The notes: generated by a model not told the origin, from the letters alone. A DNA stretch of 64,000 nt from Candidatus Aenigmatarchaeota archaeon (GCA_016180965.1 JACPAF010000001.1:109860-173859), one strand, 5' to 3'. Positions 10,096-43,081 are shown, counted from the stretch's first letter. Program-made: numbers and translations.

Positions 10096-13000
10096 ATGTT
10101 GCCGCGGTTGACTGAATTGAATTACGATAAAATTACAATTGTGTTTGCAACGATTTTGTTAGCTTTATCGTCCTTCTCCACGGGCGTTGGCGCGTTTGGA
10201 ATCAGCTTTACTGGAAACGTAAGCGTGCCATTCAATTCAAACGCAACTGTGATCGGTTCTATTACAAACAGCACACCCGAAAATTTAACCGGCCCCAACT
10301 GGATAATAAACATATCCCTTTCCAACAACAATTTCGCACAAACAACCACATCTTACAATTCCGTCCCAGTCAATGCGACTTTCAACGTAAGCGCCAACAC
10401 CACAGGCATTTGGGGATATAATTCGTTGACATTAACCGCAACGAACGGAACTATGAAAATATCAAGGATTGCGAAATTCAGGGTCACAAACACGTCTTCC
10501 GCGACAATTGAATTTGTCGGCTTGGTTCCGCCGTTTTCGCCTGGCAGCTTCATAACCGCAAAGATAACCGCAAACAACTGGTCTTCCCAACCGCTTCAAA
10601 CTCAGAACATAAGCGGCGCGATATTCGCGTCCGACGGCCCCTCCACGTCGTGGGGTGTTAACACATCGATAACAAACTCCAACGGTGAGACGCTGATGAA
10701 TTTCTCGGTGCCGTCCAATGCAGATGCGATAAACTACATACTTGCGGCCGAGGGAGGGGCGGGATTCATATTTTTCGGCGTCAACAGGTACACACTCTCA
10801 GTTTCTACAAAGGATGGCACGGGTTCCAACAAAAATGCGTTCGCTCCCGGAAGCGCAGTAACGATTGAGTCCAAGTTAGCATACACCAACGGCACACCCG
10901 TATCCGGCTCTGCGACAAAAATAGAATTGACCGATCCCAACGGGCTGACAACAAAGTCTTCGGGCTCTTCGTACGCGGACGGAAGGTTCCAGTACAATTA
11001 TACGGCCAGCGCGTCGGGCAATTATAAAATCAGGGTCACTTCCGGCGGACAAGAAACTTCAGGAAGCTTCGCAACAAGGACGCTGGCTGCGTCAATTGTA
11101 AACAGGGAAACGGCGTCGTTCTTTAGGGAATTCGCCGGGAAGAAACTTTTCCCCCCCGGGCAGAACGTGTCATTGACAATATTGGCGACCAACGTGAGCA
11201 ACGGGGAAATAATGGCAAGCGGCCCGCTGTATAACTGCAACACAACAAGCTTCCACCTGCTGGACGTGTATTTTGCCAACAACCAGACGTCGATAAACTC
11301 CTCGGTAATCGGTAACATATCTTACACGCCCGCGATCCATACCGGAACGCCGGTGTGCGGTATTGAACTTTTGCTTGATTCAGGTAAAGTGGGAACGTTT
11401 GGAATGAAATTAAATGTAACGACTGACGACAACGCACACTCCGTGGCGCAGGGATATTTCCTAATACAAAAAAACGGATTGTCTGTTGAACCATCGTCAG
11501 AATTCGGCGAAGGCGGGTTCCAGGCTTTGTTATTGCCGGGCTCAAACACGACATTCAAATTAACCGCGTTCAACATAACCAGCGGTGAAAACATGAACGG
11601 CGGGAACATCACATATGCATGGGTGAAAAAGATAACGGTGTTGTCCATAACCGGCGGCGGGAGCAATGAGATTTCTGGCCTGGAAACCAATTTCACTTTT
11701 GTAAATTCTTCGCAATCTGATGATGGTACTCCGTACCTGTCCGGCGGGCCTGTGCCAAACATAGCCGGGCCGCAGATGATAACAGTCATGGGCACCGTGG
11801 CTGGTGAAACTAACATAACCTCTGACGCATTCTATCTCGGAAAATACCTTATGGGATTCGGACAACCGTCTGGAACAAGATTCGAAGGCGGTGAAGGCGG
11901 CGGGCACGAAGGCGGACGAGGAGGCGGGATGTCAATCGACTGTTCCGGAACTACAGAATTCAACGTAATGGTTTTCGATGCAAAAACTTTCATGCCCGCG
12001 AGCTCGGTTTCGTTTGTTTCGATATTATCCGCAAAGGATGAACTGTCGGGCTCCGATGTGACTTCATGTTTGACTGTGACAAAAGGTTTGACGGATTCGT
12101 CAGGCCAGGCAAAGATCAACGTGACATTCTCGGGCTCGTGCTCATATTCAGGCTTCCACTTCATGCTGTTCAATGTCTCATTCCAGGATAAAACAGACCA
12201 AATACCATCAGGCTTCAAATGCGAGTCCATGTCGATGACGCCGAACACATACAACAGCTTGGGCCAGCAAAGGTTTTCATTTTCGCCTGTATCAAACATG
12301 ACAGTTCTCGTGCAAAACCCTTCATACACAGCAAACTCTTCCAGGGTTGTTATGGGCGGGAACATGAGCGTCACAGCTCTGATAAACTTCAACCCTTCGA
12401 CCGGCGCGACCGTGTTAACTGCGATAAACCCCATAATCGTTAATATCTCGAATGCGAGCGGGCAAGCGAACGGCACGTTATACCTGCATCCATCATACTT
12501 CATGTCTGCTGGTAAAACGTTAACAAAATGGCCGAACGGGTTCTTTGAATTGCGCGTAAAAGTGTGTGATAATGCGACGACGGCAACGAAAGGTTATTCC
12601 GGTGTGTGCGGGACGTCGTCAGATTCCGGTTTCAAGATCGCACCGTTTGACATGTGGACAGACTGGTGGATGAACCCGAACAACCAAGCGGCTACTTACC
12701 AGCCGGGCGGATGGATAAACGGAACCGGTTTGTTCGCGGACCTGCCTCCGTTGTCATATCCGATAAATATAACGAGAATAATCGTGGAGCTTATGGATTT
12801 TGAAAGCGGTAAAAAATACAATGCCACGAGGATAGAATGGATAAACGGAACGCCTGCTTACAATGTATTGAGTAGCATAGAAAATTTGACTTTCAATTTT
12901 TCAATACCTTCGTCATTAAAATCGGGCGATTACGGAGGTATAATTACTGCGACAAACGGCGGGGGCGCTGATTTTAACGGAACGGAAACGAGCGAGGATT

Positions 13001-14859
13001 TCATTTTCCTTAGCGTAAAAGGGTTAACTGTGGGGATGGCTCCGATAGAGCAATGGTCGTCGCCGTCTGGCCATTGCGCGCCCGCGCTGTTCTACCACCA
13101 GAACTGGCTCACGGGAATGCACGAACAAATGGGAACCACGGATGGATGGTCGCTTAATAACTGGACATTCATCAACAGCACATACCTCGGCATAACAAAC
13201 GCGCAGGCGGGCTTTTCCACACTGGTTTGCACCGGCCCCACGCTTGACACAGTTAACGGTTTCAACCAACCCGCTACCAACTATACCAATTTCAGCGTCA
13301 TGGTTGTAGCTAACAACACAAACTCGTTTGTGTTTTTGGGGAACAGAACCTTGGATCCGCGAGTCAGGAATGTTACGGAAATAACGCGCGTCCTGGCGAC
13401 CAATAAAATCGATTCGCGAGACGGTTTCAAAACATACCTATGGACAATAGACGGCGCGCCGTTCATACGGCTCATTAACGTGACAAGACTGTCGACCAGC
13501 GGTTCCGGCGGGCAGGGAACTGTGAGCACGAACTTCGCATTTGGCGGAAGCCACAGAATACGCGAAATGATATGGCTGCCCATGGTCGCGTTCCGGGGAA
13601 GCGATAGCCAAACCACCACATCCACACGACTAACAAACTTTTGGTTCAACATAACAGAAGTTGCGGAGATGAACACCGAGGGGTTCGGTATAAAATCCAA
13701 ATTGCCGGCGAGCCCGTTCGATTTTGCAATAAACTCGAGCGGAGGCAACTGGACGGATTTCACAGGAAATTTGACAAACTCTGATGGATTGGCATTCATC
13801 CCGCTTAACATAACCAAGAACGGAAGGTTCATGGCTTTCTGGCGCGTAAACTCTACGCCGGTTGAAAAATCCACGTTCAAAAATTCCATAAATCTGAATG
13901 TACGTTCATTCAACACCCAGACAAGCTTCGTCCAATTGCTGCCGAACACCTCCAAAAAGATCGTGTTGAAATCCAATGTTACAACGTTAAATGCAACTGT
14001 CGGCGGAAACGCCACGTCGGGTTTCACGGGCTCATATTCTCCTGTGCTATTCTTCAACGGGTCGTTCACGGAAACTGCGACGGACCAGCTGGTGAGAGAC
14101 GGAGTTTTATCAACTTTCTATTTTGTCGTTACAAACGCAACAACTCACGACCTGACGACTGCGAGCCCGGTCAATTACACGCGCGGCAATTTGACAATAT
14201 TGTATATGGATGACGATAACAAATTTTCGAATAGCGGCGCATGCTCCGCGAGCGCCGGCGCAAGAAGCGGATCGACAGATGAATTATCGTCCGGATGCGG
14301 AACCGGGTCTTCGGGCGTCGCGTTCAATTATCCGACCATGTCCATGGCAGCTTCAGACCCGAACAAGGCGCTAAGTTTCGGTTCCATGGTAACACTTGGC
14401 TTGACGGACTGGTGGATAAACGACACGCATGCCATACTGAATTTCTACGAGTCGTCTCCTTCGATACCGTGGGCCACAGTTTCATCATCAACGGAAAAGC
14501 ACGGCGTAAGGGTGTGTGCGTCGACATTCTCGAACCAGGCGAAGAACTCGACATTCGCTCTGAAGTATAACAACTGGATGCAGGGCAAATTAGCTTCAAC
14601 ACAAACTGCAAACGTGACCGTTTACAACCTTACCCATGAGGGTTCGATAAACCTGCCAACCGAAATGTCCGCATCTATTTACGACGGCTGCCTGCTGGCT
14701 GAAATTTTGCCGCAGAGCGGTTCGTGGTCCGCGGGAAGGAATGAGATTGTCGGCACCGCGACAGAGATAAACAATTCGGGCGCATCAACGGGCGTGCAGG
14801 AAGAAATGTTCGGGGGTCCGATAGAATTCCTGAGCGGCGGAAGCAAAAATTTCGGGTGA
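10096..14859 (+). CDS. Giant secreted surface protein (1587 aa), N-glycosylation-sequon rich
   Basis: N-terminal hydrophobic signal/anchor. I counted at least 14 N-x-S/T sequons in the first ~215 residues. Composition is Thr/Ser/Asn/Gly-rich and beta-rich. There is no C-terminal TM segment. Confidence 0.85.
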   Translation: MLPRLTELNYDKITIVFATILLALSSFSTGVGAFGISFTGNVSVPFNSNATVIGSITNSTPENLTGPNWIINISLSNNNFAQTTTSYNSVPVNATFNVSANTTGIWGYNSLTLTATNGTMKISRIAKFRVTNTSSATIEFVGLVPPFSPGSFITAKITANNWSSQPLQTQNISGAIFASDGPSTSWGVNTSITNSNGETLMNFSVPSNADAINYILAAEGGAGFIFFGVNRYTLSVSTKDGTGSNKNAFAPGSAVTIESKLAYTNGTPVSGSATKIELTDPNGLTTKSSGSSYADGRFQYNYTASASGNYKIRVTSGGQETSGSFATRTLAASIVNRETASFFREFAGKKLFPPGQNVSLTILATNVSNGEIMASGPLYNCNTTSFHLLDVYFANNQTSINSSVIGNISYTPAIHTGTPVCGIELLLDSGKVGTFGMKLNVTTDDNAHSVAQGYFLIQKNGLSVEPSSEFGEGGFQALLLPGSNTTFKLTAFNITSGENMNGGNITYAWVKKITVLSITGGGSNEISGLETNFTFVNSSQSDDGTPYLSGGPVPNIAGPQMITVMGTVAGETNITSDAFYLGKYLMGFGQPSGTRFEGGEGGGHEGGRGGGMSIDCSGTTEFNVMVFDAKTFMPASSVSFVSILSAKDELSGSDVTSCLTVTKGLTDSSGQAKINVTFSGSCSYSGFHFMLFNVSFQDKTDQIPSGFKCESMSMTPNTYNSLGQQRFSFSPVSNMTVLVQNPSYTANSSRVVMGGNMSVTALINFNPSTGATVLTAINPIIVNISNASGQANGTLYLHPSYFMSAGKTLTKWPNGFFELRVKVCDNATTATKGYSGVCGTSSDSGFKIAPFDMWTDWWMNPNNQAATYQPGGWINGTGLFADLPPLSYPINITRIIVELMDFESGKKYNATRIEWINGTPAYNVLSSIENLTFNFSIPSSLKSGDYGGIITATNGGGADFNGTETSEDFIFLSVKGLTVGMAPIEQWSSPSGHCAPALFYHQNWLTGMHEQMGTTDGWSLNNWTFINSTYLGITNAQAGFSTLVCTGPTLDTVNGFNQPATNYTNFSVMVVANNTNSFVFLGNRTLDPRVRNVTEITRVLATNKIDSRDGFKTYLWTIDGAPFIRLINVTRLSTSGSGGQGTVSTNFAFGGSHRIREMIWLPMVAFRGSDSQTTTSTRLTNFWFNITEVAEMNTEGFGIKSKLPASPFDFAINSSGGNWTDFTGNLTNSDGLAFIPLNITKNGRFMAFWRVNSTPVEKSTFKNSINLNVRSFNTQTSFVQLLPNTSKKIVLKSNVTTLNATVGGNATSGFTGSYSPVLFFNGSFTETATDQLVRDGVLSTFYFVVTNATTHDLTTASPVNYTRGNLTILYMDDDNKFSNSGACSASAGARSGSTDELSSGCGTGSSGVAFNYPTMSMAASDPNKALSFGSMVTLGLTDWWINDTHAILNFYESSPSIPWATVSSSTEKHGVRVCASTFSNQAKNSTFALKYNNWMQGKLASTQTANVTVYNLTHEGSINLPTEMSASIYDGCLLAEILPQSGSWSAGRNEIVGTATEINNSGASTGVQEEMFGGPIEFLSGGSKNFG

Positions 14860-14865
14860 TCATGA

Positions 14866-16368
14866 ATGGCCAAGATTTTAAATTTTGCACTTTCGTGGGC
14901 GTTGTCGTTAGCCGTCCTGTCCGCCGGTGCGACGGCTGCCGTAACTGTCAACGACCTGATTTTTGACACAACGACCGCGGACGCCGGAACCACAAGAACT
15001 GTCAGCGTCACCATGTCAACGGATTCCGGATCTGCAACGATAAATTCATTCTCAATAAGTTCGTCGCCTTCCGGGCTCACCGTAAGCAGTGTGGATACCC
15101 CGTTCACTGTAGGCACATCAGGCACAAGCAAAACTTTCACGATCAGTTCGTCCACATCAGAAACTTACACGTTTAGTGTTACTGCAATAGATTCAAACGG
15201 CGCGAGTTCAAGCAGTAATTCTGCCACAGTAGAATATGTCACCCCATCAAGCCTTACGATGGACGTTTTGGAAAATCCTCTCTCAACGGTTTACGAGGGA
15301 AACAACACCGGAATTTCCATAAATGTGATCAACAACCTGGGGTCTTCGCAAACCAGGAATTTAACATTGTATCAAAACCTTTCAAACACTTTTGTTGTAA
15401 ACACGTCGCTGGGAAGCGACCCGGCCACACAAACCCTTTCATTATCATCGGGGCAAACACGCTCGGTCGTGTGGAATATAACCATAGGGTCGTTCACAGG
15501 AACCGGCCACTCCTTGGTCAGGCTTGGCGACACCACAGAAGCGAAAGTTTTCACATTGACAAAAGGAACTACAACCACGGTCTCAACAGCAACAACTACG
15601 ACGGCCGGCGGAGTAGGCGGCAGCGGAGCAACGACTACAACAACGACCACAACTACGACAACAATCTCCGGGCAGCCGGGGCATGAAATACAAAATATCG
15701 TGAGAGAAATTATTCAAAGAAACAACGAAGAAATAAAATCCCTGATTGACAGCAAAGAAGAGCTCCAGACCGGGCTAAGAATCGCATTAGGAAAAGAGCT
15801 GTCAGCAGAAATAAAAGCGGCTGTATCCGCGACCACGGAAAAAATACAGAAAAATGTGGCTTCCAATAGAAGCATAGACATAGATACCGTGAATTCAAGA
15901 TCCAGCGTTTCCCTTAAAATAAAGTACAACGGAACGGAACAGGTGAACAACTTTTTAGTAAAGGATGTTATACCAAAATCGTTTGCTGATTCATCTTCAA
16001 AAATAACTGTAAGCGCGCCAGGCGCCGTTGTAAATGTGACCAAGGCGGATCCCGAATACATATTCACGTATAAAAACATAACTCCCGGTGAAGAGAAGAC
16101 GATAAGCTACAGCGTCAATGAGAGGGCGTTCACGGTCTCAGGCGAATACTCGGCTCCTGTAATACTTGCGGAATCGACGCAGGTTTATGTGCCGCCGACA
16201 ACGCAGACAAACCAAACTACCACAACACTGTCGGCTGCGGAAAAAATTAACCTTACGTTCGTCCTGGCTGTTGTTTTGATACTGGGCGGAATCGTATGGT
16301 ATTATTACCAAAATCATGGGAAGAAACAGCCGTGGCAATCTACGATAAAATCCCCACAGTTAAAGTGA
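14866..16368 (+). CDS. Surface protein with signal peptide, poly-Thr linker and C-terminal membrane anchor
   Basis: Starts 6 nt after the giant ORF. Signal ALSLAVLSAGATAA, 11 consecutive Thr codons, a C-terminal TM segment (LTFVLAVVLILGGIVWYYY) and a basic tail. Confidence 0.85.
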   Translation: MAKILNFALSWALSLAVLSAGATAAVTVNDLIFDTTTADAGTTRTVSVTMSTDSGSATINSFSISSSPSGLTVSSVDTPFTVGTSGTSKTFTISSSTSETYTFSVTAIDSNGASSSSNSATVEYVTPSSLTMDVLENPLSTVYEGNNTGISINVINNLGSSQTRNLTLYQNLSNTFVVNTSLGSDPATQTLSLSSGQTRSVVWNITIGSFTGTGHSLVRLGDTTEAKVFTLTKGTTTTVSTATTTTAGGVGGSGATTTTTTTTTTTISGQPGHEIQNIVREIIQRNNEEIKSLIDSKEELQTGLRIALGKELSAEIKAAVSATTEKIQKNVASNRSIDIDTVNSRSSVSLKIKYNGTEQVNNFLVKDVIPKSFADSSSKITVSAPGAVVNVTKADPEYIFTYKNITPGEEKTISYSVNERAFTVSGEYSAPVILAESTQVYVPPTTQTNQTTTTLSAAEKINLTFVLAVVLILGGIVWYYYQNHGKKQPWQSTIKSPQLK

Positions 16369-16650: not shown

Positions 16651-16659
16651 AGTCGAAAT

Positions 16660-16755
16660 AGCCCCGTAGTGCAGCGGCCAAAGTGATTTTGTAATCACGG
16701 CAAAGCACATCAGGCTCTGGACCTGGGGACGGCGGTTCGAATCCGCCCGGGGCTA
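16660..16755 (+). tRNA. tRNA-Gln: tRNA-Gln (anticodon CUG at 16717-16719) with a ~23-nt insertion/intron in the D-loop
   Basis: Acceptor stem AGCCCCG/CGGGGCU plus discriminator A. D-stem GUGC/GCAC. Anticodon stem UCAGG/CCUGG with loop CUCUGGA. T-arm GGCGG-UUCGAAU-CCGCC. There is an extra 16682-16704 segment containing the hairpin GUGAUU-UUGU-AAUCAC. No CCA is encoded. Confidence 0.85.
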
Positions 16756-16762
16756 TTAAAAA

Positions 16763-35810: not shown

Positions 35811-36491
35811 ATGAATATTCTTGTGGTTGCGGATGTGCACGGCGATTTTGAATCTCTTTCCGATGTGTTACAAAAAATAAATTTTGGCGTCGACGTGGTT
35901 GTTTGCCCGGGCGATTTTACGGACATCGGACTGTCGCTGATGGGGTTTTCGCGGGAGGACATGATGCATCTGGTGTTAGACGAGCTTTTGGGACTGAAAA
36001 GGCCGGTTTTGGCTGTGCCCGGCAACCACGACCCCCCAGAGACGCATAAGATACTAAACGATTACGGGGTAAACCTTCATGGAACAGGCAGGATCATCGA
36101 CGGGATCGGTTTTTTTGGTTTTGGTGGCGCGAAAACACCCTTTGCGACCCCGTTTGAACCGAGCGAAGAGGAAACGAACACCGGATTAAAAAAAGGATTC
36201 GACTTGGTTGCGGGCACGAAACATAAAATTATGATTACACACAACCCCGCTAAAAACACAAAGTTGGACCGTGTCAGCACGGGCGCGCATGTGGGCTCTT
36301 CCGCTGTGCGGGATTTTATAATTAAAAACAAACCCGACGCGTCGATAAGCGCGCACATACACGAAGCTGTCGGCGTAGACGAGCTAAACGGGACGAAACT
36401 ACTTTACCCCGGACCGGTTTCTGGCGGTTGGGTTGGTTTGTTGTCGGTAGGCGATAAAACCGATGTTAAAATTCTTAACCTAAAACAGTGA
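35811..36491 (+). CDS. Calcineurin-like metallophosphoesterase
   Basis: VVADVHGD, CPGDFTD, VPGNHD, ITHNP, SAHIHE. Confidence 0.85.
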   Translation: MNILVVADVHGDFESLSDVLQKINFGVDVVVCPGDFTDIGLSLMGFSREDMMHLVLDELLGLKRPVLAVPGNHDPPETHKILNDYGVNLHGTGRIIDGIGFFGFGGAKTPFATPFEPSEEETNTGLKKGFDLVAGTKHKIMITHNPAKNTKLDRVSTGAHVGSSAVRDFIIKNKPDASISAHIHEAVGVDELNGTKLLYPGPVSGGWVGLLSVGDKTDVKILNLKQ

Positions 36492-36597: not shown

Positions 36598-37008
36598 ATG
36601 AAAATTAAACACCGCAACCAAGATTTCATGATAGCTAAAAACCACGTTAGCTTACAGATGTTGTTGCGGGGTTGGATTATACAGGATTTGTTTTTTGAGG
36701 GTGGGCCGGACCTGATAGCGGCAAAAAAACATGATATGATTAGGATCAAGGTTAGATACGCAACCGCGGGCGACGGCGGACATGTGTTTTCCGCGGGCGG
36801 CTTGCAAGAAAAAATTTTTTTTGAGGTGTGTGAGGGGAGCGATTTACTGGTTTTGGTCTGTATGGACGATGATAAAAACGCGTCGGGTTTCTACATTTTT
36901 AACCGAGACGAATCACCGAAAGCAAAAACTTTCCTGCACCCGCCAAAGGGACCGTTTCCTAAGTATAGGGGGTTTTATAACAACTGGAAACCCTTGCAGT
37001 GGAAATGA
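36598..37008 (+). CDS. Hjc-like PD-(D/E)xK-fold protein with a substituted catalytic motif
   Basis: GGPDLIAAKKHDMIRIKVRY parallels Hjc SPDIIAAKKGAIFAFECKF from the same window, but the ExK position reads KVR. Confidence 0.5.
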   Translation: MKIKHRNQDFMIAKNHVSLQMLLRGWIIQDLFFEGGPDLIAAKKHDMIRIKVRYATAGDGGHVFSAGGLQEKIFFEVCEGSDLLVLVCMDDDKNASGFYIFNRDESPKAKTFLHPPKGPFPKYRGFYNNWKPLQWK

Positions 37009-37068: not shown

Positions 37069-38271
37069 ATGTCCCAGTCTTCTTTGCAAAAAATATTTTC
37101 CGGTTACCTTAAAAACGCGAAAATTTTTGTCTCGAAGGAGCCAATGGCGTCATCTTACGACCCGGTAAACATTGCACATCGCGACAAGCAGATGGAAATG
37201 GTCGCTTCTATACTGGCTCCCTGCCTTCGTAATGAGAAACCATCGAATACGTTTGTTTATGGTAAAACGGGAACCGGTAAAACGCTGTGCGTTAAACACG
37301 TTACGGCCGAGTTGGTTAAAACCGCGGAAGAAAACGGAATACAAATGAAGGTCGTTTTTATCAACTGTAAGATGAAGAAGGTTGCGGACACCGAATACCG
37401 TGTGCTTGCCCAACTTTGCAAAGAATTTGGTTACAGTGTGCCCGCGACTGGGTTGCCAACAAACAGACTTTACGAGATATTTTATGAGAGCTTGGATTCT
37501 CAAAAACAAAACGTTTTGTTGGTCCTCGACGAGATTGACGCGTTGGTTTCAAAGGTCGGCGATAATATATTGTATAACTTAACACGGGTTAACCAGGATC
37601 TCGCCAACGCCAAATTAACCCTTATCGGGGTCACGAACGACCTTTCTTTTTCGGAGGCGCTGGATCCCAGGGTCAAGTCTTCTTTGAACGAGGAGGAAAT
37701 TGTTTTCCCGCCTTACAATGCCCTGGAACTGCGCGACATACTCAGCGAACGGGCCAAGCTGGCATTCGTGACGACCGGGTTAAAAGACGGAGTTATACAA
37801 AAATGCGCCGCTCTTGCAGCACAGGAACACGGGGACGCGAGGCGAGCTCTGGATCTTTTGCGGGTGGCCGGCGAAATCGCGGAAAGGAATGGAGACCTGT
37901 CATTGGAAGAGGCGCATGTCGATAGGGCGCAGGAAAAAATAAACGCCGACCGCGTGCTTGAGACTGTGCGCACCCAGCCCAGACAGTCCCAGGCTATACT
38001 GTGGTCCATTGCCAATAACCAGGACCAAAACCTAACTACGGGCGAAACCTATGAAAGGTACAAAGCGGTTTGCAAGAAGCGGGGCTTGGAAATTCTGGGC
38101 CCCCGCCGCGCTTCGGATCTCATATCCGAGCTTGGCATGCTCGGAATTTTGTCTGTCCATACAACATCAAAGGGCCGGCACGGGCGCACCAAGGAAATTA
38201 ATTTGATGTTGTCGAAACATACGCGAGAAAATATAGTTGAAATGCTGAAAAAAGATTTCTATTTCGAGTAG
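37069..38271 (+). CDS. cdc6: Orc1/Cdc6 replication initiator
   Basis: Walker A GKTGTGKT, Walker B LLVLDEIDAL, LIGVTND, GDARRALDLLRVAGEIAE, and a C-terminal winged helix. Confidence 0.95.
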   Translation: MSQSSLQKIFSGYLKNAKIFVSKEPMASSYDPVNIAHRDKQMEMVASILAPCLRNEKPSNTFVYGKTGTGKTLCVKHVTAELVKTAEENGIQMKVVFINCKMKKVADTEYRVLAQLCKEFGYSVPATGLPTNRLYEIFYESLDSQKQNVLLVLDEIDALVSKVGDNILYNLTRVNQDLANAKLTLIGVTNDLSFSEALDPRVKSSLNEEEIVFPPYNALELRDILSERAKLAFVTTGLKDGVIQKCAALAAQEHGDARRALDLLRVAGEIAERNGDLSLEEAHVDRAQEKINADRVLETVRTQPRQSQAILWSIANNQDQNLTTGETYERYKAVCKKRGLEILGPRRASDLISELGMLGILSVHTTSKGRHGRTKEINLMLSKHTRENIVEMLKKDFYFE

Positions 38272-38278
38272 TGTTTTT

Positions 38279-39301
38279 ATGAACAAGTTGCTGTTGGCTA
38301 AATTTTTAGATAAGGGAATAATGGTATCCCCGTCAATCGCCGGCGAGTTAACGGAAGACGACTACGAAAAAACAGTTTCTGGCTCCATACCCGCGCTGTT
38401 GGACGAGACCACACTGCAAAACATACGCGTCAAATCAGACTTAATTGTAATACCATCAAAGATTGTTAAAACGGAAATCGAGGCCAAAGATTTTTTGGAA
38501 TATTATAAAAATAAAATCAGAGTGCTGGGCGAAGTTATAATCCGGGGCTTGGAGGAAAAGCCGGTTTCGATAAATAAAATGCGGCCCGGCCAGCGAAATG
38601 TAACATTGGGCATCGTACGGGAGCCGGGCCAGGATATGTTTTATCTCGAGGATCTGACGGGAAGATGCGAGGTGCGCACCAACTCGCATAATATCAAAGA
38701 AGACGATGTGTTGGCCGTGTCCGGGGTTTTTTCAGGGAAATCCGTGTTAGCGGAGGAAATAATTTATCCCGAGCTTCCGATAAAACGCGACATAACCAGA
38801 ACAACCTCCCAGGCGTCGTTTTATTTCGGGGCGTCTTCGGACGCGCAGAAAGAGGAGATAAACGAAATCGCGAAACGCGGCGATGCGCAAATTTTCCTTT
38901 CGAATAAAGACGATGCGCGAAAAATTACAATCATGATTTTACACGACGGAGCGGCCACATCTCGGGACGTGAGCGGCCCGGCCAAGATATTTTCCTCCAT
39001 ACACGGTGTGAGATTCAAATTGCAATTCCTTCCGGTACAATCGGCAGGCAACATAGAGGAATCTGCCAGGTTTTTTTCGAAGAGGCGTTATGCGGTGTCG
39101 GGCGCGATTTTGCCAGCATTCAGCGAGGATTTAAATTTTATCGACGACGATACGGACTTTGTCTTCTTCGGTGATTCCGGCTCCACACAGTTTACAAATC
39201 ATAAGGGAAGGTCGTTTGTGTCGGTTTCCAGCGGGTTTGTGGAGGCGGACTTGAACACGCGAAATATAAAATCCTGGCATTTAAATCGAGCCGGACGATA
39301 A
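38279..39301 (+). CDS. DP1-like (PolD small subunit / B-subunit family) protein with a shortened, degenerate phosphoesterase domain
   Basis: DP1-type N-terminus (LLLAKFLDKGIMVSPS). OB fold (VTLGIVRE...FYLEDLTGRCEV...DDVLAVSGVF...IIYPELP). The PDE motif positions read FGASSDAQ, ILHDGAA and FFGDSGS instead of DIHVGS, GNHDA and GHVH. It is 340 aa versus the ~600 aa I recall for Pyrococcus DP1. Confidence 0.75.
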   Translation: MNKLLLAKFLDKGIMVSPSIAGELTEDDYEKTVSGSIPALLDETTLQNIRVKSDLIVIPSKIVKTEIEAKDFLEYYKNKIRVLGEVIIRGLEEKPVSINKMRPGQRNVTLGIVREPGQDMFYLEDLTGRCEVRTNSHNIKEDDVLAVSGVFSGKSVLAEEIIYPELPIKRDITRTTSQASFYFGASSDAQKEEINEIAKRGDAQIFLSNKDDARKITIMILHDGAATSRDVSGPAKIFSSIHGVRFKLQFLPVQSAGNIEESARFFSKRRYAVSGAILPAFSEDLNFIDDDTDFVFFGDSGSTQFTNHKGRSFVSVSSGFVEADLNTRNIKSWHLNRAGR

Positions 39302-39315
39302 TACAGTGGTTGCTT

Positions 39316-41988
39316 ATGAAGATGCAAGTCCTAGATGCGGATTATGTCATTATCGAAGACCGTCCAATAGTAAGGATGTTCGGCCGGGACGAAAATAATA
39401 AAACGGCCTGCGGTTTTGTGAAAGGATATTTCCCGTATTTTTATATGCTTGCGCGGGATGGTAAAATACAAGACATGGAAAAGTTTGTTTCTTCCAAACA
39501 GGACGTCATCAAATGCGAGCGTGTAATGAAAAAACTCCCCAGAGGTTTCTCCAAAGATCCGACTGAGATGTTGAAAGTTACCCTAAGAAATCCGCAGAAA
39601 GTTTCCGAGCTGCGAGATTTGATGAAAACACACCCGCAGGTCGAGGAGATTTTTGAAGCCGACATACTTTTCAAATACCGTTTCATGGCCGATTATTCCA
39701 TCAGCGGGATGGGTTGGGTCGACACGGAATGCGCAGACATAAACACCCATACCGTGAAAACCGAACGCACGGTAAATGTAACAAAAATAAAACCAACAGA
39801 CCAACCCGCGAGCGTTCAAACTAAATACATGGCAGTAGATATAGAAACGCTTTCCAAGTCCGGAGGACTTCCAAACCCAAGCGAAGACGACATAATCATA
39901 ATCAGCCTTGCGTTCTATCCTGAACACCGAGGAAATAAATCGATGGTTCTTACAATACGCGGTGCGAACACAGACAGCGTGATTAGGTGCTTGGACGAAA
40001 CAGAAATGCTCACGAAGATGGCCGGCATCATAGACGATTATGACCCGGACGTGATTACGGGATTCAACATAAACAATTTCGACTTGCCTTTCATTTTAAA
40101 ACGCATGGAAATGTTGAAATTGCCGCGTACCATCGGAAGATGCAACGATAAACAGGCGTATACCAAAGAAATTGTGAAAAACCGGGTTCGCGCAAGCGTT
40201 CCGGGCCGCGTGGTCGCGGACAGTTACCAGTTGATAAAAAAGAATTTTCTTTTCAAACGATACGGACTCATGGATGTTTCGAGAATTTTGTTGAATCAGG
40301 AAAAATTAGACGTTGCACACTCGGAGATATCCAAGCTGTGGAATAGCGGGGATAAGGATAAAATATCCAGGCTGATCGATTACGCACGGAAGGACGCAGA
40401 ACTTGCGCTGGATCTAGTCGTTAAAAAACAGCTGCTCGACAAATATATCGAATTATCCAAACTTAGCGGCGTGCTTCTCCAGGACAGTCTTGATGGAGGC
40501 GAGGCCGGGCGCGTCGAAAATCTTCTGTTGCGAGAATTCAACAAGAAAAATTTCGTGGTTCCATGCAGGCCGGAATCTTCTGACATAAGGAAAAAGGAGC
40601 AGGAAAAAGAGGACAACGGGCTGAAGGGCGGGTTTGTGTTAACACCGAAAGTTGGGCTGCATTCTGACGGCTTGATAGTTGTTTTGGATTTCCGCAGCAT
40701 GTACCCGTCCATATTCAGGAGTTACAACATTTGTCCAACCACGATTGTAAAAGGAAACATCGACGGGGTCGAGACAATTAAAACCCCGGAAGGCCACACG
40801 TTCGTTTCCAAGGATGTACAGGAGGGGATAATCCCAAATATACTTGGAAACCTCCTTGAAGAGCGCGCCAAGATAAAAAAATCGATGAGGCAGGAAACGG
40901 ACGAGGAAAAACGCAGGATATTGGACGCCAAACAGCTTGCGACCAAGATTTTGGCAAATTCATTTTACGGTTATACGGGGTACACGAAAGCAAAGTTATA
41001 CATATTGGACATAGCCAACGCAATCACGTCGTGCGGCCGTTATTTGATACAAACCGTGACCAAGACGGTTGAAAGCAAACTCGGATACCAAGCCGTTTAC
41101 GGGGACACGGATTCTATAATGGTAAAAATTCCCGAGACGGATTTAGAGCGCGGGTGGGATAAGGGAACGGAAATAATGAATACGATAAATAGCGAACTTT
41201 CCGGGGCCATGCAGATGGAATTTGAAAAGCTGTTTAAAAGCTTTTTGATACTCACCAAAAAAAGGTACGCGGCCTGGAAGTTTGTAAAAGAAAACGGAAA
41301 ATGGAAGGACAAAATAGAAATGAAGGGCATCGAGACTGTACGAAGAGACTGGTGCGAATTGGTTTCCGACACGATGAATAAGACTATAGACATAATACTG
41401 AAGAAAGGCGACACGAAAGAAGCGCTGTCTTATTTCAACGGTGTCATGAAGGATCTCGCAGAAAACAAAATTCCCATAGAAAAGCTGGTAATAACGAAAA
41501 GCATAACGAAAAGCCCATCGAACTATGCGGGCATGCAGCCTCATATAGAATTGGCAAAAAAAATGGCCAAGAGAAATTCACAAGACGCGCCCGGAGTTGG
41601 AGATAGGATAGGTTATGTCATAACCAAAGGAAACCAACTGCTTTCTAAACGAACCGAGGATCCGGCTTATGTAAAAGAAAAACGGCTCGAAATAGACCAC
41701 GTTTATTATGTGGAAAACCAAATGCTTCCGCCGATCGAGCGTATATTCACGGCGTTGGGATTCAGTAAATCCGAGCTCCTGGGAAAGGGACGACAGTCCT
41801 CGCTAATGGAAATGATGAAATCCAAACAAACAAAAAGCAACGTATTCGAGGGTTTTGTGTGTGCGGGGTGCGGGAACGAATATTCAGCTTCGCCACTAAC
41901 CGGGCTGTGCCAGTGCGGCGGTAAAATACAAATACGAACGCCAACAGGCGCGACGGAAAAAATCACGGTCCAGGCTGGTAACGTATGA
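39316..41988 (+). CDS. polB: Family-B DNA polymerase with a C-terminal Cys4 zinc-ribbon extension
   Basis: Exo I DIETLS, Exo II FNINNFDLPF, Exo III YARKDA, motif A LDFRSMYPSI, motif B KILANSFYGY, motif C VYGDTDS, KKRYA. There is extra C-terminal CAGC-x12-CQC at 41860-41916. Confidence 0.95.
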   Translation: MKMQVLDADYVIIEDRPIVRMFGRDENNKTACGFVKGYFPYFYMLARDGKIQDMEKFVSSKQDVIKCERVMKKLPRGFSKDPTEMLKVTLRNPQKVSELRDLMKTHPQVEEIFEADILFKYRFMADYSISGMGWVDTECADINTHTVKTERTVNVTKIKPTDQPASVQTKYMAVDIETLSKSGGLPNPSEDDIIIISLAFYPEHRGNKSMVLTIRGANTDSVIRCLDETEMLTKMAGIIDDYDPDVITGFNINNFDLPFILKRMEMLKLPRTIGRCNDKQAYTKEIVKNRVRASVPGRVVADSYQLIKKNFLFKRYGLMDVSRILLNQEKLDVAHSEISKLWNSGDKDKISRLIDYARKDAELALDLVVKKQLLDKYIELSKLSGVLLQDSLDGGEAGRVENLLLREFNKKNFVVPCRPESSDIRKKEQEKEDNGLKGGFVLTPKVGLHSDGLIVVLDFRSMYPSIFRSYNICPTTIVKGNIDGVETIKTPEGHTFVSKDVQEGIIPNILGNLLEERAKIKKSMRQETDEEKRRILDAKQLATKILANSFYGYTGYTKAKLYILDIANAITSCGRYLIQTVTKTVESKLGYQAVYGDTDSIMVKIPETDLERGWDKGTEIMNTINSELSGAMQMEFEKLFKSFLILTKKRYAAWKFVKENGKWKDKIEMKGIETVRRDWCELVSDTMNKTIDIILKKGDTKEALSYFNGVMKDLAENKIPIEKLVITKSITKSPSNYAGMQPHIELAKKMAKRNSQDAPGVGDRIGYVITKGNQLLSKRTEDPAYVKEKRLEIDHVYYVENQMLPPIERIFTALGFSKSELLGKGRQSSLMEMMKSKQTKSNVFEGFVCAGCGNEYSASPLTGLCQCGGKIQIRTPTGATEKITVQAGNV

Positions 41989-42463: not shown

Positions 42464-43081
42464 TTAGTTGACTGATACCACGCCCATGATGATTTTTATT
42501 GATTCTTTTTTGCTTGTGCGTAATTTGATCCGTTCTGCGAACGTTTTGAGCCTCCAATCTCCCCTGATTGTTAAATAACTCAACCCGCCTTTCGTTGTAC
42601 GCAAATTTGATTCTATACCTTCGAGTAGCAGCAGTTTTTTGATTTCGACCAATCCTGCTGTATTGACGGACGTGGCGCGCAAATACCTGTAACCACTGCC
42701 AGAGATTGAAAATTTTTCACGGTTAAAGTATACATACGACGCGGTGTCGAAAAAACCTGCCAATAACCCGGATCGGAATTCCGGATTATCGTAAGATATC
42801 TTAGGCGGTAACCAAGACCTCCGGGTCGGAAAGAATCCGATGTTGTCAAAAATCGAAACGAGTTCTTTGCCGTAGGCATTTACTATAAAATATCTTTTGT
42901 CATCTATAGCTTTCTTCCTTGTTAGTGTTTCGAAGCCCCGTATTGCCCGCAAAGACTCGGCGAAATGTTCGGCTAAAATGCCGTTATTGGTCTGAAGACC
43001 AACACAGTAATTGCGGCCGTGTTTAATGAAGCCGCTCCCGCAAAGCACACCGCACGCATACCCTAAAGTTTCGTGATCCAT
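42464..43081 (-). CDS. Free-standing double-motif LAGLIDADG-fold protein with both catalytic acidic positions substituted
   Basis: Motif 1 is LGYACGVLCGSGF and motif 2 is LLAGFFDTASYV. The overall block order resembles I-DmoI (NYCVGLQ, RYFIVNAYGKEL, YLRATSVN, GLSYLTIRG). Confidence 0.7.
   Translation of the reverse strand: MDHETLGYACGVLCGSGFIKHGRNYCVGLQTNNGILAEHFAESLRAIRGFETLTRKKAIDDKRYFIVNAYGKELVSIFDNIGFFPTRRSWLPPKISYDNPEFRSGLLAGFFDTASYVYFNREKFSISGSGYRYLRATSVNTAGLVEIKKLLLLEGIESNLRTTKGGLSYLTIRGDWRLKTFAERIKLRTSKKESIKIIMGVVSVN

Follow-up and report, generated by a model that had tools for sequence, protein, structure and literature searches.

The 64,000-nucleotide stretch of DNA analyzed here (Candidatus Aenigmatarchaeota archaeon, GCA_016180965.1, JACPAF010000001.1:109860-173859; in the following termed the window) carries a cluster of three genes coding for an Orc1/Cdc6 replication initiator, a 340-amino-acid (aa) protein related to DP1, the small subunit of the archaeal DNA polymerase PolD, and a family-B DNA polymerase (PolB). 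This locus quite probably specifies a two-subunit replicative polymerase of the Aenigmarchaeota (DPANN), composed of PolB and a non-catalytic DP1-like subunit. The reading is built on the homologies of both proteins, the loss of metal ligands in the DP1-like protein, purifying selection on its gene, and the lineage-wide co-occurrence of the genes, all of which were observed in this analysis; physical binding of DP1 to PolB and the lineage-wide absence of DP2, the catalytic subunit of PolD, in Aenigmatarchaeota are taken from the literature (PMC12680538).

The combination of a zinc-tailed PolB with an inactive DP1 is not new, the system having been described in 2020 and experiments on the interaction of its subunits having followed in 2025. 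Kazlauskas et al. (2020, NAR; PMC7544198) reported that the PolB group B6 in Aenigmarchaeota carries C-terminal Zn motifs, with the 'B6-aenigma1' proteins having one motif that is closest to DP2 zfIII, that most, though not all, sequenced Aenigmarchaeota are without DP2, and that a group of DP1 proteins is inactivated. They suggested a mobile-element origin for the PolB and proposed that PolB and inactive DP1 reproduce, or precede, the eukaryotic design of a PolB plus a B-subunit. According to a study in Nat Ecol Evol (2025; PMC12680538), Aenigmatarchaeota are without DP2 but retain DP1, and DP1 binds the PolB bearing a C-terminal domain (CTD) in AlphaFold3 models and in yeast two-hybrid assays, both for Aenigmatarchaeota and for Baldrarchaeia. 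In the same study, the aenigmatarchaeal CTD was called shorter and 'degenerate', with a different predicted structure, and the two-motif 'B6-aenigma2' sequences were reassigned to Baldrarchaeia contamination. A first-pass annotation of the window, made from the sequence alone, had inferred that a PolB occupies the slot of DP2 and may have acquired a zinc module to dock an inactivated DP1-like partner. This inference is essentially right and is supported by the homology of the module to Zn-III of DP2, the dead DP1 and the conserved gene arrangement, yet it had already been published along with several of the tests proposed for it.

Among archaea, this arrangement corresponds to the eukaryotic combination of a PolB with a dead, DP1-derived B-subunit, and it bears on the origin of Pol alpha, delta and epsilon; both earlier papers (2020 and 2025) have already pointed out this significance. 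What the window contributes is a well-assembled case from where the family is most degenerate, with PolB in the ancestral dp2 slot by cdc6. The main text of neither paper (PMC7544198, PMC12680538) mentions the gene order or operon context of the three genes; the position of PolB in the dp2 slot, the loss of an Arg-Arg loop in the clade of the window and a linked intact phosphoesterase go beyond both main texts. The canonical docking residues are not conserved phylum-wide, which is useful to know when proteins are chosen for structural or biochemical work.

Fold, kinship and lost ligands of the DP1-like protein

A Pfam search with the 340-aa protein gave no match and NCBI lists a relative as 'hypothetical protein'; to standard annotation (Pfam, PGAP), the B-subunit is wholly invisible. 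The DP1 model of NCBIfam, in turn, matches residues 53-178, corresponding to the OB region, with an E value of 5e-10. The first relatives, 10 clusters, were obtained by a word-indexed search, and an exhaustive HMMER scan with a 10-sequence profile extended the family to 516 representatives at 50% clustering (272 with E ≤ 1e-10), nearly all of which are 280-400 aa long, canonical DP1 being longer. An AlphaFold2 model based on a 10-sequence alignment reached a predicted local distance difference test (pLDDT) score of 79.5 and a predicted template-modelling (pTM) score of 0.70. When this model was compared with the PDB by Foldseek, the top 38 matches were PolD DP1 or eukaryotic B-subunits and no others (E 1.4e-11 to 5e-4), with full-length alignments and TM scores, normalized to the query, of 0.46-0.56 for ranks 1-37. 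They include the DP1 chains 9f29_A (1.4e-11), 5ihe, 6hmf and 6hms as well as the B-subunits of Pol delta, epsilon, alpha and zeta (3e0j, 6tny_B, 5vbn_A, 4y97, 6v8p_F; E 1e-10 to 1e-5). At the sequence level, the narrow 10-sequence profile matched DP1 in the PDB only marginally (E~0.1); a wider family profile of 58 sequences matched DP1 chains at 4e-38 to 3e-33, spanning the OB and phosphoesterase (PDE) regions, and the Pol epsilon B-subunit at 1e-4. The kinship with DP1 is therefore clear from the wider profile and the fold search, not from the narrow profile.

Both Foldseek and the profile show the two-domain core of DP1, in which a calcineurin-like phosphoesterase fold comes after an OB fold. 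The OB fold has beta strands at residues 106-162 of the model and aligns to the OB domain of DP1. Residues 1-52 form four short helices in the model and probably represent a DP1N-like domain: there are weak co-linear profile matches to DP1N (2kxe_A, E=0.1; 6knb_A, residues 2-54), and in the ortholog of locus L010 the NCBIfam DP1 model covers residues 1-200 (E=4.6e-23). The DP1-like identity and the OB fold, both proposed in the first-pass annotation, are thus borne out well above chance, and the grouping with unrelated OB proteins that it had named as a result speaking against them did not appear, the matches being DP1 and B-subunits.

In DP1 of Pyrococcus abyssi, the phosphoesterase has five motifs, the metal ligands are D363, H365, D407, N453, H500, H563 and H565, and the proton donor is H451 (PMC4996933). 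According to the profile alignment, ~100 canonical residues are absent from the PDE domain of the window protein, including the segment with motif III (GNHD). D363, H365, D407, H500, H563 and H565 correspond to S186, D188, K210, P252, D299 and G301, respectively, and the position of N453 is deleted; none of the six positions that can be aligned keeps its ligand, and the ligand set of an active exonuclease DP1 is not present. Two alignments disagree on where motif II lies, and no candidate Asp or His residue is conserved in the 10-member clade, across which the C-terminal half of the protein also contains no invariant His. A degraded ligand set was found in the DP1-like gene of all 12 aenigmarchaeal loci examined (the window, L001-L004 and L007-L013). 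Judged by its sequence, the 340-aa protein is a homolog of DP1 and of B-subunits with a dead, shortened phosphoesterase domain. The shortening and the loss of ligands had been noticed in the first-pass annotation, and no intact ligand set hidden by a mis-alignment was found. Its pairing of FGASSDAQ with motif I and of FFGDSGS with motif V was reproduced, whereas that of ILHDGAA with motif III (GNHDA) did not hold, since motif III falls inside the ~100-residue deletion and ILHDG aligns before the deletion or on the strand of motif II.

Among the distant relatives, ten short DP1-like proteins of 338-398 aa (P0154, P0184, P0209, P0228, P0236, P0241, P0248, P0263, P0264 and P0277) retain all six alignable metal ligands. 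Several of them read GN[A/V/T]D or GNIE in place of canonical GNHD, the proton-donor His being replaced, and such proteins may bind metal without catalysis.

PolB and its zinc tail

The 890-aa PolB matches PF00136 (3.4e-115) and PF03104 (4.5e-35) and contains the complete set of exonuclease motifs (ExoI DIET175, ExoII NINNFD251, ExoIII YARKD356) and polymerase motifs (motif A DFRSMYPS458, motif B KILANSFYG544, motif C YGDTDS595), as had been stated in the first-pass annotation; by these motifs it is predicted to be proofreading-proficient and fully active. In phmmer searches, it is about equally similar to PolB of Thermococcales (1e-121) and to Pol delta (1e-110). More than 1116 relatives were found, and each named one belongs to the Aenigmarchaeota/Aenigmatarchaeota.

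Alignments to the structures of Thermococcales PolB stop at residues 834-838 of 890, so the tail of ~52 residues is a genuine extension, in agreement with the ~50 additional residues containing CAGC-x12-CQC that had been noted before. It contains a single Cys4 motif, with a linker of ~25 residues before it and ~23 residues after it. In a survey of the 120 closest PolB relatives (47-93% identity), each protein was found to carry a single CxxC-x(11-13)-Cx(1-2)C motif within its last ~75 residues. A profile of the tail had only three significant matches in the PDB, all of them to Zn-III of DP2, including 6knb_B of Thermococcus kodakarensis (residues 1127-1166, 1.2e-9) and 6hms_B of P. abyssi (residues 1119-1157, 2.9e-8). 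On this profile evidence, the tail is a DP2-derived Zn-III module and not just any zinc ribbon. One C-terminal C4 motif closest to DP2 Zn-III, the hallmark of B6-aenigma1, was found in the window PolB and in all 120 relatives. The two motifs of a eukaryotic CTD are not present, and with a median of 19 residues after the last Cys the PolB tails also have no helical bundle of the DP2 type; the tail is, as far as can be read from its residues, a minimal single-Zn module that differs from the two-motif eukaryotic CTD.

In PolD as resolved by cryo-EM, a loop of Zn-III (KxRRxP, R1131/R1132) lies in an electronegative groove at the junction of the DP1 OB and PDE domains, and the affinity of a 20-residue Zn-III peptide for DP1 is in the nanomolar range (PMC6355029). 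Since Zn-III docks DP1, the homologous tail appears to be a DP1-docking element transplanted onto PolB. The loop of the window PolB that is equivalent to R1131/R1132 reads EYSASPL, and in the 121 PolB tails the docking loop contains two basic residues in 54 cases, one in 30 and none in 37; the four Cys residues and the PL-G motif of the zinc loop are still invariant. A co-variation of RR-type loops with ligand retention in the partner was looked for in the 12 loci, and no clear pattern emerged.

Proposed complex and competing explanations

The spacing of the three genes, all on the plus strand, is exactly 7 and 14 nucleotides, and these short gaps make co-transcription of the DP1-like gene and PolB with orc1/cdc6 likely. 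Coordinates, strand and gaps agree with the three-gene layout of the first-pass annotation, and all peptides cited in it (FYLEDLTGRCEV, DDVLAVSGVF, IIYPELP, FGASSDAQ, ILHDGAA, FFGDSGS, GRQSSLMEMM, CAGC-x12-CQC) were found in the translations. In Pyrococcus, the operon has the order cdc6-dp1-dp2, reportedly described by Uemori in 1997 and by Myllykallio in 2000, and the PolB of the window stands at the dp2 position of this order. Its location fits an in-situ recombination that kept the 3' Zn-III codons. A DP1-like gene is found near PolB in each of the 12 loci, always with E ≤ 1e-55 to the hidden Markov model of the family and with additional support from hhalign and NCBIfam, and it directly adjoins PolB in nine of them (Table 1). 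The survey of the clade suggested in the first-pass annotation thus gave a Cys tail in all 120 relatives and a DP1-like gene in all 12 loci, and no Cys-tailed PolB without a DP1-like neighbor was met in the loci sampled. The named relatives of PolB and of the 340-aa protein are all from metagenome-assembled genomes of Candidatus Aenigmarchaeota/Aenigmatarchaeota.

In the proposed complex, a proofreading family-B polymerase would have taken the place of DP2, keeping or capturing from it nothing more than the small Zn-III docking module, now at the C-terminus of the polymerase. PolB would supply both synthesis and proofreading, and because it proofreads for itself the nuclease of DP1 would have become redundant. 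What is left of DP1 would be a non-catalytic B-subunit made up of an N-terminal helical domain, an OB fold and a trimmed, metal-free phosphoesterase-like domain. By analogy with Zn-III of DP2 and with CysB of Pol alpha and epsilon, the zinc tail of PolB would insert into the DP1-like protein where its OB and PDE domains meet, a geometry that may also apply to the clade of the window. The small subunit may function as an adaptor whose DP1N-like N-terminus would most plausibly connect the polymerase with GINS/CMG or with other fork factors. In eukaryotes, such a precedent is the interaction of Dpb2 with GINS. Another is the binding of DP1N to Gins51 in Thermococcus (PMC9023282).

The complex resembles several known systems. 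With B6-aenigma1 (PMC7544198) it shares the lineage, a PolB of ~880-900 aa with a single C4 motif closest to DP2 Zn-III, a DP1 homolog without catalytic residues, the reported absence of DP2 and the proposal of a eukaryote-like complex; within this group, the clade of the window is the degenerate end, with a small subunit of 340 aa that has no Pfam match, has lost all six alignable ligands and bears the label 'hypothetical', and with a PolB loop lacking both Arg residues. As in PolD (P. abyssi; 6HMS, 6T8H, 8PPT), the small subunit has an OB and PDE architecture, probably preceded by a corresponding N-terminal domain, and the catalytic subunit ends in a homologous Zn-III, which in PolD is docked at the OB/PDE groove. 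Unlike PolD, however, the catalytic subunit belongs to family B and is not a double-psi beta-barrel DP2, the nuclease site of DP1 is destroyed, the PDE domain is ~100 residues shorter and there is no counterpart to the helical bundle of the DP2 CTD. The eukaryotic Pol alpha, delta, epsilon and zeta (4Y97, 5VBN, 6TNY, 3E0J) likewise combine a PolB with an inactivated DP1-derived B-subunit whose fold matches the model of the window protein, and their proofreading, where present, is performed by the PolB exonuclease. In contrast to the window proteins, their CTDs possess CysA and CysB motifs and a helical bundle, for which the tail has one motif and no bundle, and their B-subunits retain a full-size PDE fold. 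Finally, the PolB3-DP2CTD fusion of Baldrarchaeia is an archaeal PolB with a DP2-derived CTD from a lineage that keeps DP1 and is without DP2, and its interaction with DP1 was shown by yeast two-hybrid; its CTD, unlike the tail of the window PolB, is full length and eukaryote-like in predicted structure (PMC12680538).

It is barely credible that the 340-aa gene is a decaying, functionless dp1 relic retained by operon position alone. The missing Pfam match, the loss of all catalytic residues together with ~100 deleted residues and the 'hypothetical' label of its relative might suggest a relic, as might its being the fastest diverging of the three genes, with 71% identity versus 93-94% for the neighboring genes in the same genome pair. 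The ratio of nonsynonymous to synonymous substitution rates (dN/dS), though, is about 0.2 in every domain (0.20-0.21 overall, 0.13-0.33 across its three regions) with dS near 1, which argues strongly against a relic; the neighboring genes in the same genome pairs have values of 0.033 (cdc6) and 0.033-0.040 (PolB). With such a ratio, the gene is, by its pattern of substitutions, under purifying selection and no pseudogene. Moreover, all 12 loci have an uninterrupted reading frame, the family comprises 516 representative clusters and the AlphaFold2 fold is confident. The near-invariant residues of the wide family are non-catalytic, namely S97, E124, D125, T127 and P164, which lie in the OB fold, and R270, D293, N307, K309 and R328; all of these except T127 and P164 were counted as invariant non-catalytic residues that speak against decay.

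Several observations nevertheless weigh against the two-subunit polymerase. The DP1N similarity of the window protein is weak (E=0.1), the small subunit evolves ~6 times faster than PolB, and both basic residues of the docking loop are absent in all 13 PolBs of at least 73% identity, i.e. throughout the clade of the window, so that canonical electrostatic docking cannot be assumed for it from these sequences. In the split clusters (L009, L012, L013), the DP1-like gene remains by cdc6 and not by PolB, which leaves room for a Cdc6-related role, and the check for DP2 in the source genome covers the 64-kb window. With the lost docking residues and the split clusters in favor of it, the DP1-like protein of this clade might no longer be the partner of PolB, working instead, as an OB-fold adaptor for single-stranded DNA or protein, with Orc1/Cdc6 or other fork or origin factors; the zinc tail would then serve otherwise, for example in DNA contact, as Zn-III of PolD also lines the DNA duplex (PMC6355029). 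We regard this as improbable in view of the zinc module kept in 120 of 120 PolBs, the adjacency of the two genes in nine of the 12 loci, the invariance of the four Cys residues and the PL-G motif in the loop, and the yeast two-hybrid binding of aenigmatarchaeotal DP1 to the CTD-bearing PolB (PMC12680538). Highly improbable is the presence of a canonical PolD (dp1 plus dp2) elsewhere in the genome, with the cluster being an accessory or mobile-element-derived polymerase that has a paralogous small subunit: the inspected 64 kb belong to a contig of at least 316 kb, DP2 is absent only in 'most' Aenigmarchaeota and a mobile-element origin has been suggested for the PolB (PMC7544198), but no DP2-like ORF was found among the open reading frames (ORFs) of the 64-kb window, and the cluster is located in a conserved core-gene neighborhood and not in a mobile-element context. 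The lost RR loop, the fast evolution of the small subunit and the linkage of the DP1-like gene with cdc6 keep alive a minority reading, unlikely in our view, according to which the interface between PolB and B-subunit was rebuilt, or the partnership re-purposed, in the clade of the window; the metallophosphoesterase described below, which stays linked to the cdc6/DP1-like pair throughout the phylum, might then supply in trans a nuclease or phosphodiesterase activity lost by the dead DP1. Apart from this, and again as an unlikely possibility, the gene order would document that dp2 was replaced in place, with only its 3'-terminal Zn-III codons left behind.

Window features and neighboring genes

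Table 1 Features of the polymerase locus and gene orders in related loci; positions refer to the window unless a locus is given
Feature	Position or loci	Strand	Evidence
Intact calcineurin-type metallophosphoesterase, 226 aa, linked gene	35811..36491	+	PF00149 5.3e-19
orc1/cdc6 replication initiator gene, 400 aa	37069..38271	+	Pfam and NCBIfam matches
Putative inactivated DP1/B-subunit-like small polymerase subunit, 340 aa	38279..39301	+	NCBIfam, Foldseek, family profile
N-terminal helical domain of DP1-like protein (aa 1-52), probably DP1N-like	38279..38434	+	Model, weak profile matches
OB fold of DP1-like protein (aa ~95-165)	38561..38773	+	Model, alignment to DP1 OB domain
Shortened phosphoesterase-like domain (aa ~178-335), predicted catalytically dead	38810..39283	+	DP1 profile alignment, ligand mapping
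Family-B DNA polymerase, 890 aa, intact 3'-5' exonuclease and polymerase sites	39316..41988	+	Pfam, motifs
PolB C-terminal extension (aa 839-890), single C4 zinc module	41830..41985	+	Structure alignments, tail profile
Zinc module Cys849, 852, 865, 867 (CxxC-x12-CxC)	41860-41916	+	Read from sequence
Metallophosphoesterase ortholog	L002 7516-8196		
Metallophosphoesterase ortholog	L008 2512-3186		
Metallophosphoesterase ortholog	L012 10114-10788	-	
Metallophosphoesterase ortholog	L013 10302-10985	-	
Order cdc6 > DP1-like > PolB	6 loci: window, L001-L004, L007		
Order DP1-like > PolB, no cdc6	3 loci: L008, L010, L011		
Order cdc6 > DP1-like on opposite strand, 0.3-4 kb from PolB	3 loci: L009, L012, L013		

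The first gene of the cluster codes for a complete Orc1/Cdc6 with AAA+ ATPase, lid and C-terminal winged helix (PF13401, PF22703, PF09079), as indicated by matches to the AAA domains, to Cdc6_lid (4.5e-25) and Cdc6_C (2.3e-23) in Pfam and to TIGR02928 in NCBIfam (5.9e-124). Its orthologs of 400 aa in L001-L004 share the start Met. A search for ORB-type repeats around cdc6 revealed no convincing family, and an origin-adjacent setting is thus not demonstrated. The module lies among the core genes for DnaG, Hjc, SecDF, NAC and AlaRS, and synteny holds down to ~45% identity of the DP1-like protein; an archaeal AlaRS, an archaeal DnaG, SecD and Hjc mark the window as archaeal DNA.

Upstream of cdc6, the gene for the metallophosphoesterase is syntenic with the cdc6/DP1-like/PolB module in 11 of the 12 loci, and in L012 and L013 it follows immediately downstream of cdc6 and the DP1-like gene, in the same orientation. 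All five motifs of the enzyme are invariant in 9 orthologs. The idea that it represents a split-off PDE domain of DP1 was rejected, as its closest relatives in the PDB are aq_1956 (2yvt), SbcD and MJ0936 and not DP1. The linkage in 11 of the 12 loci does not by itself establish the enzyme as a member of the polymerase module.

A 136-aa ORF (36598-37008, plus strand) sits between the metallophosphoesterase gene and cdc6 and occupies the space upstream of cdc6 where an origin might be expected. It has no match in Pfam or NCBIfam; genes of 125-144 aa are present at its position in L002-L004, L007, L008, L010 and L011. Two genes downstream of PolB, a free-standing gene with a LAGLIDADG_3 domain (205 aa; 42464-43081, minus strand) is syntenic in L002-L004 and L007 and could be a domesticated homing endonuclease. 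A relative of PolB, P0038 (1251 aa), bears an intein with a LAGLIDADG domain.

Elsewhere in the window, ARAGORN predicted a 98-nucleotide tRNA-SeC (16659-16756, plus strand). Rfam at gathering threshold detected no tRNA anywhere in the window, weak tRNA-like fragments being confined to 16713-16754; probably the prediction is wrong, or else the tRNA is split or contains an intron. A 500-aa ORF without a family match (14866-16368, plus strand) follows a 1587-aa ORF (10096-14859, plus strand), which shows weak matches to Filamin/MG2 repeats and is probably a surface protein.

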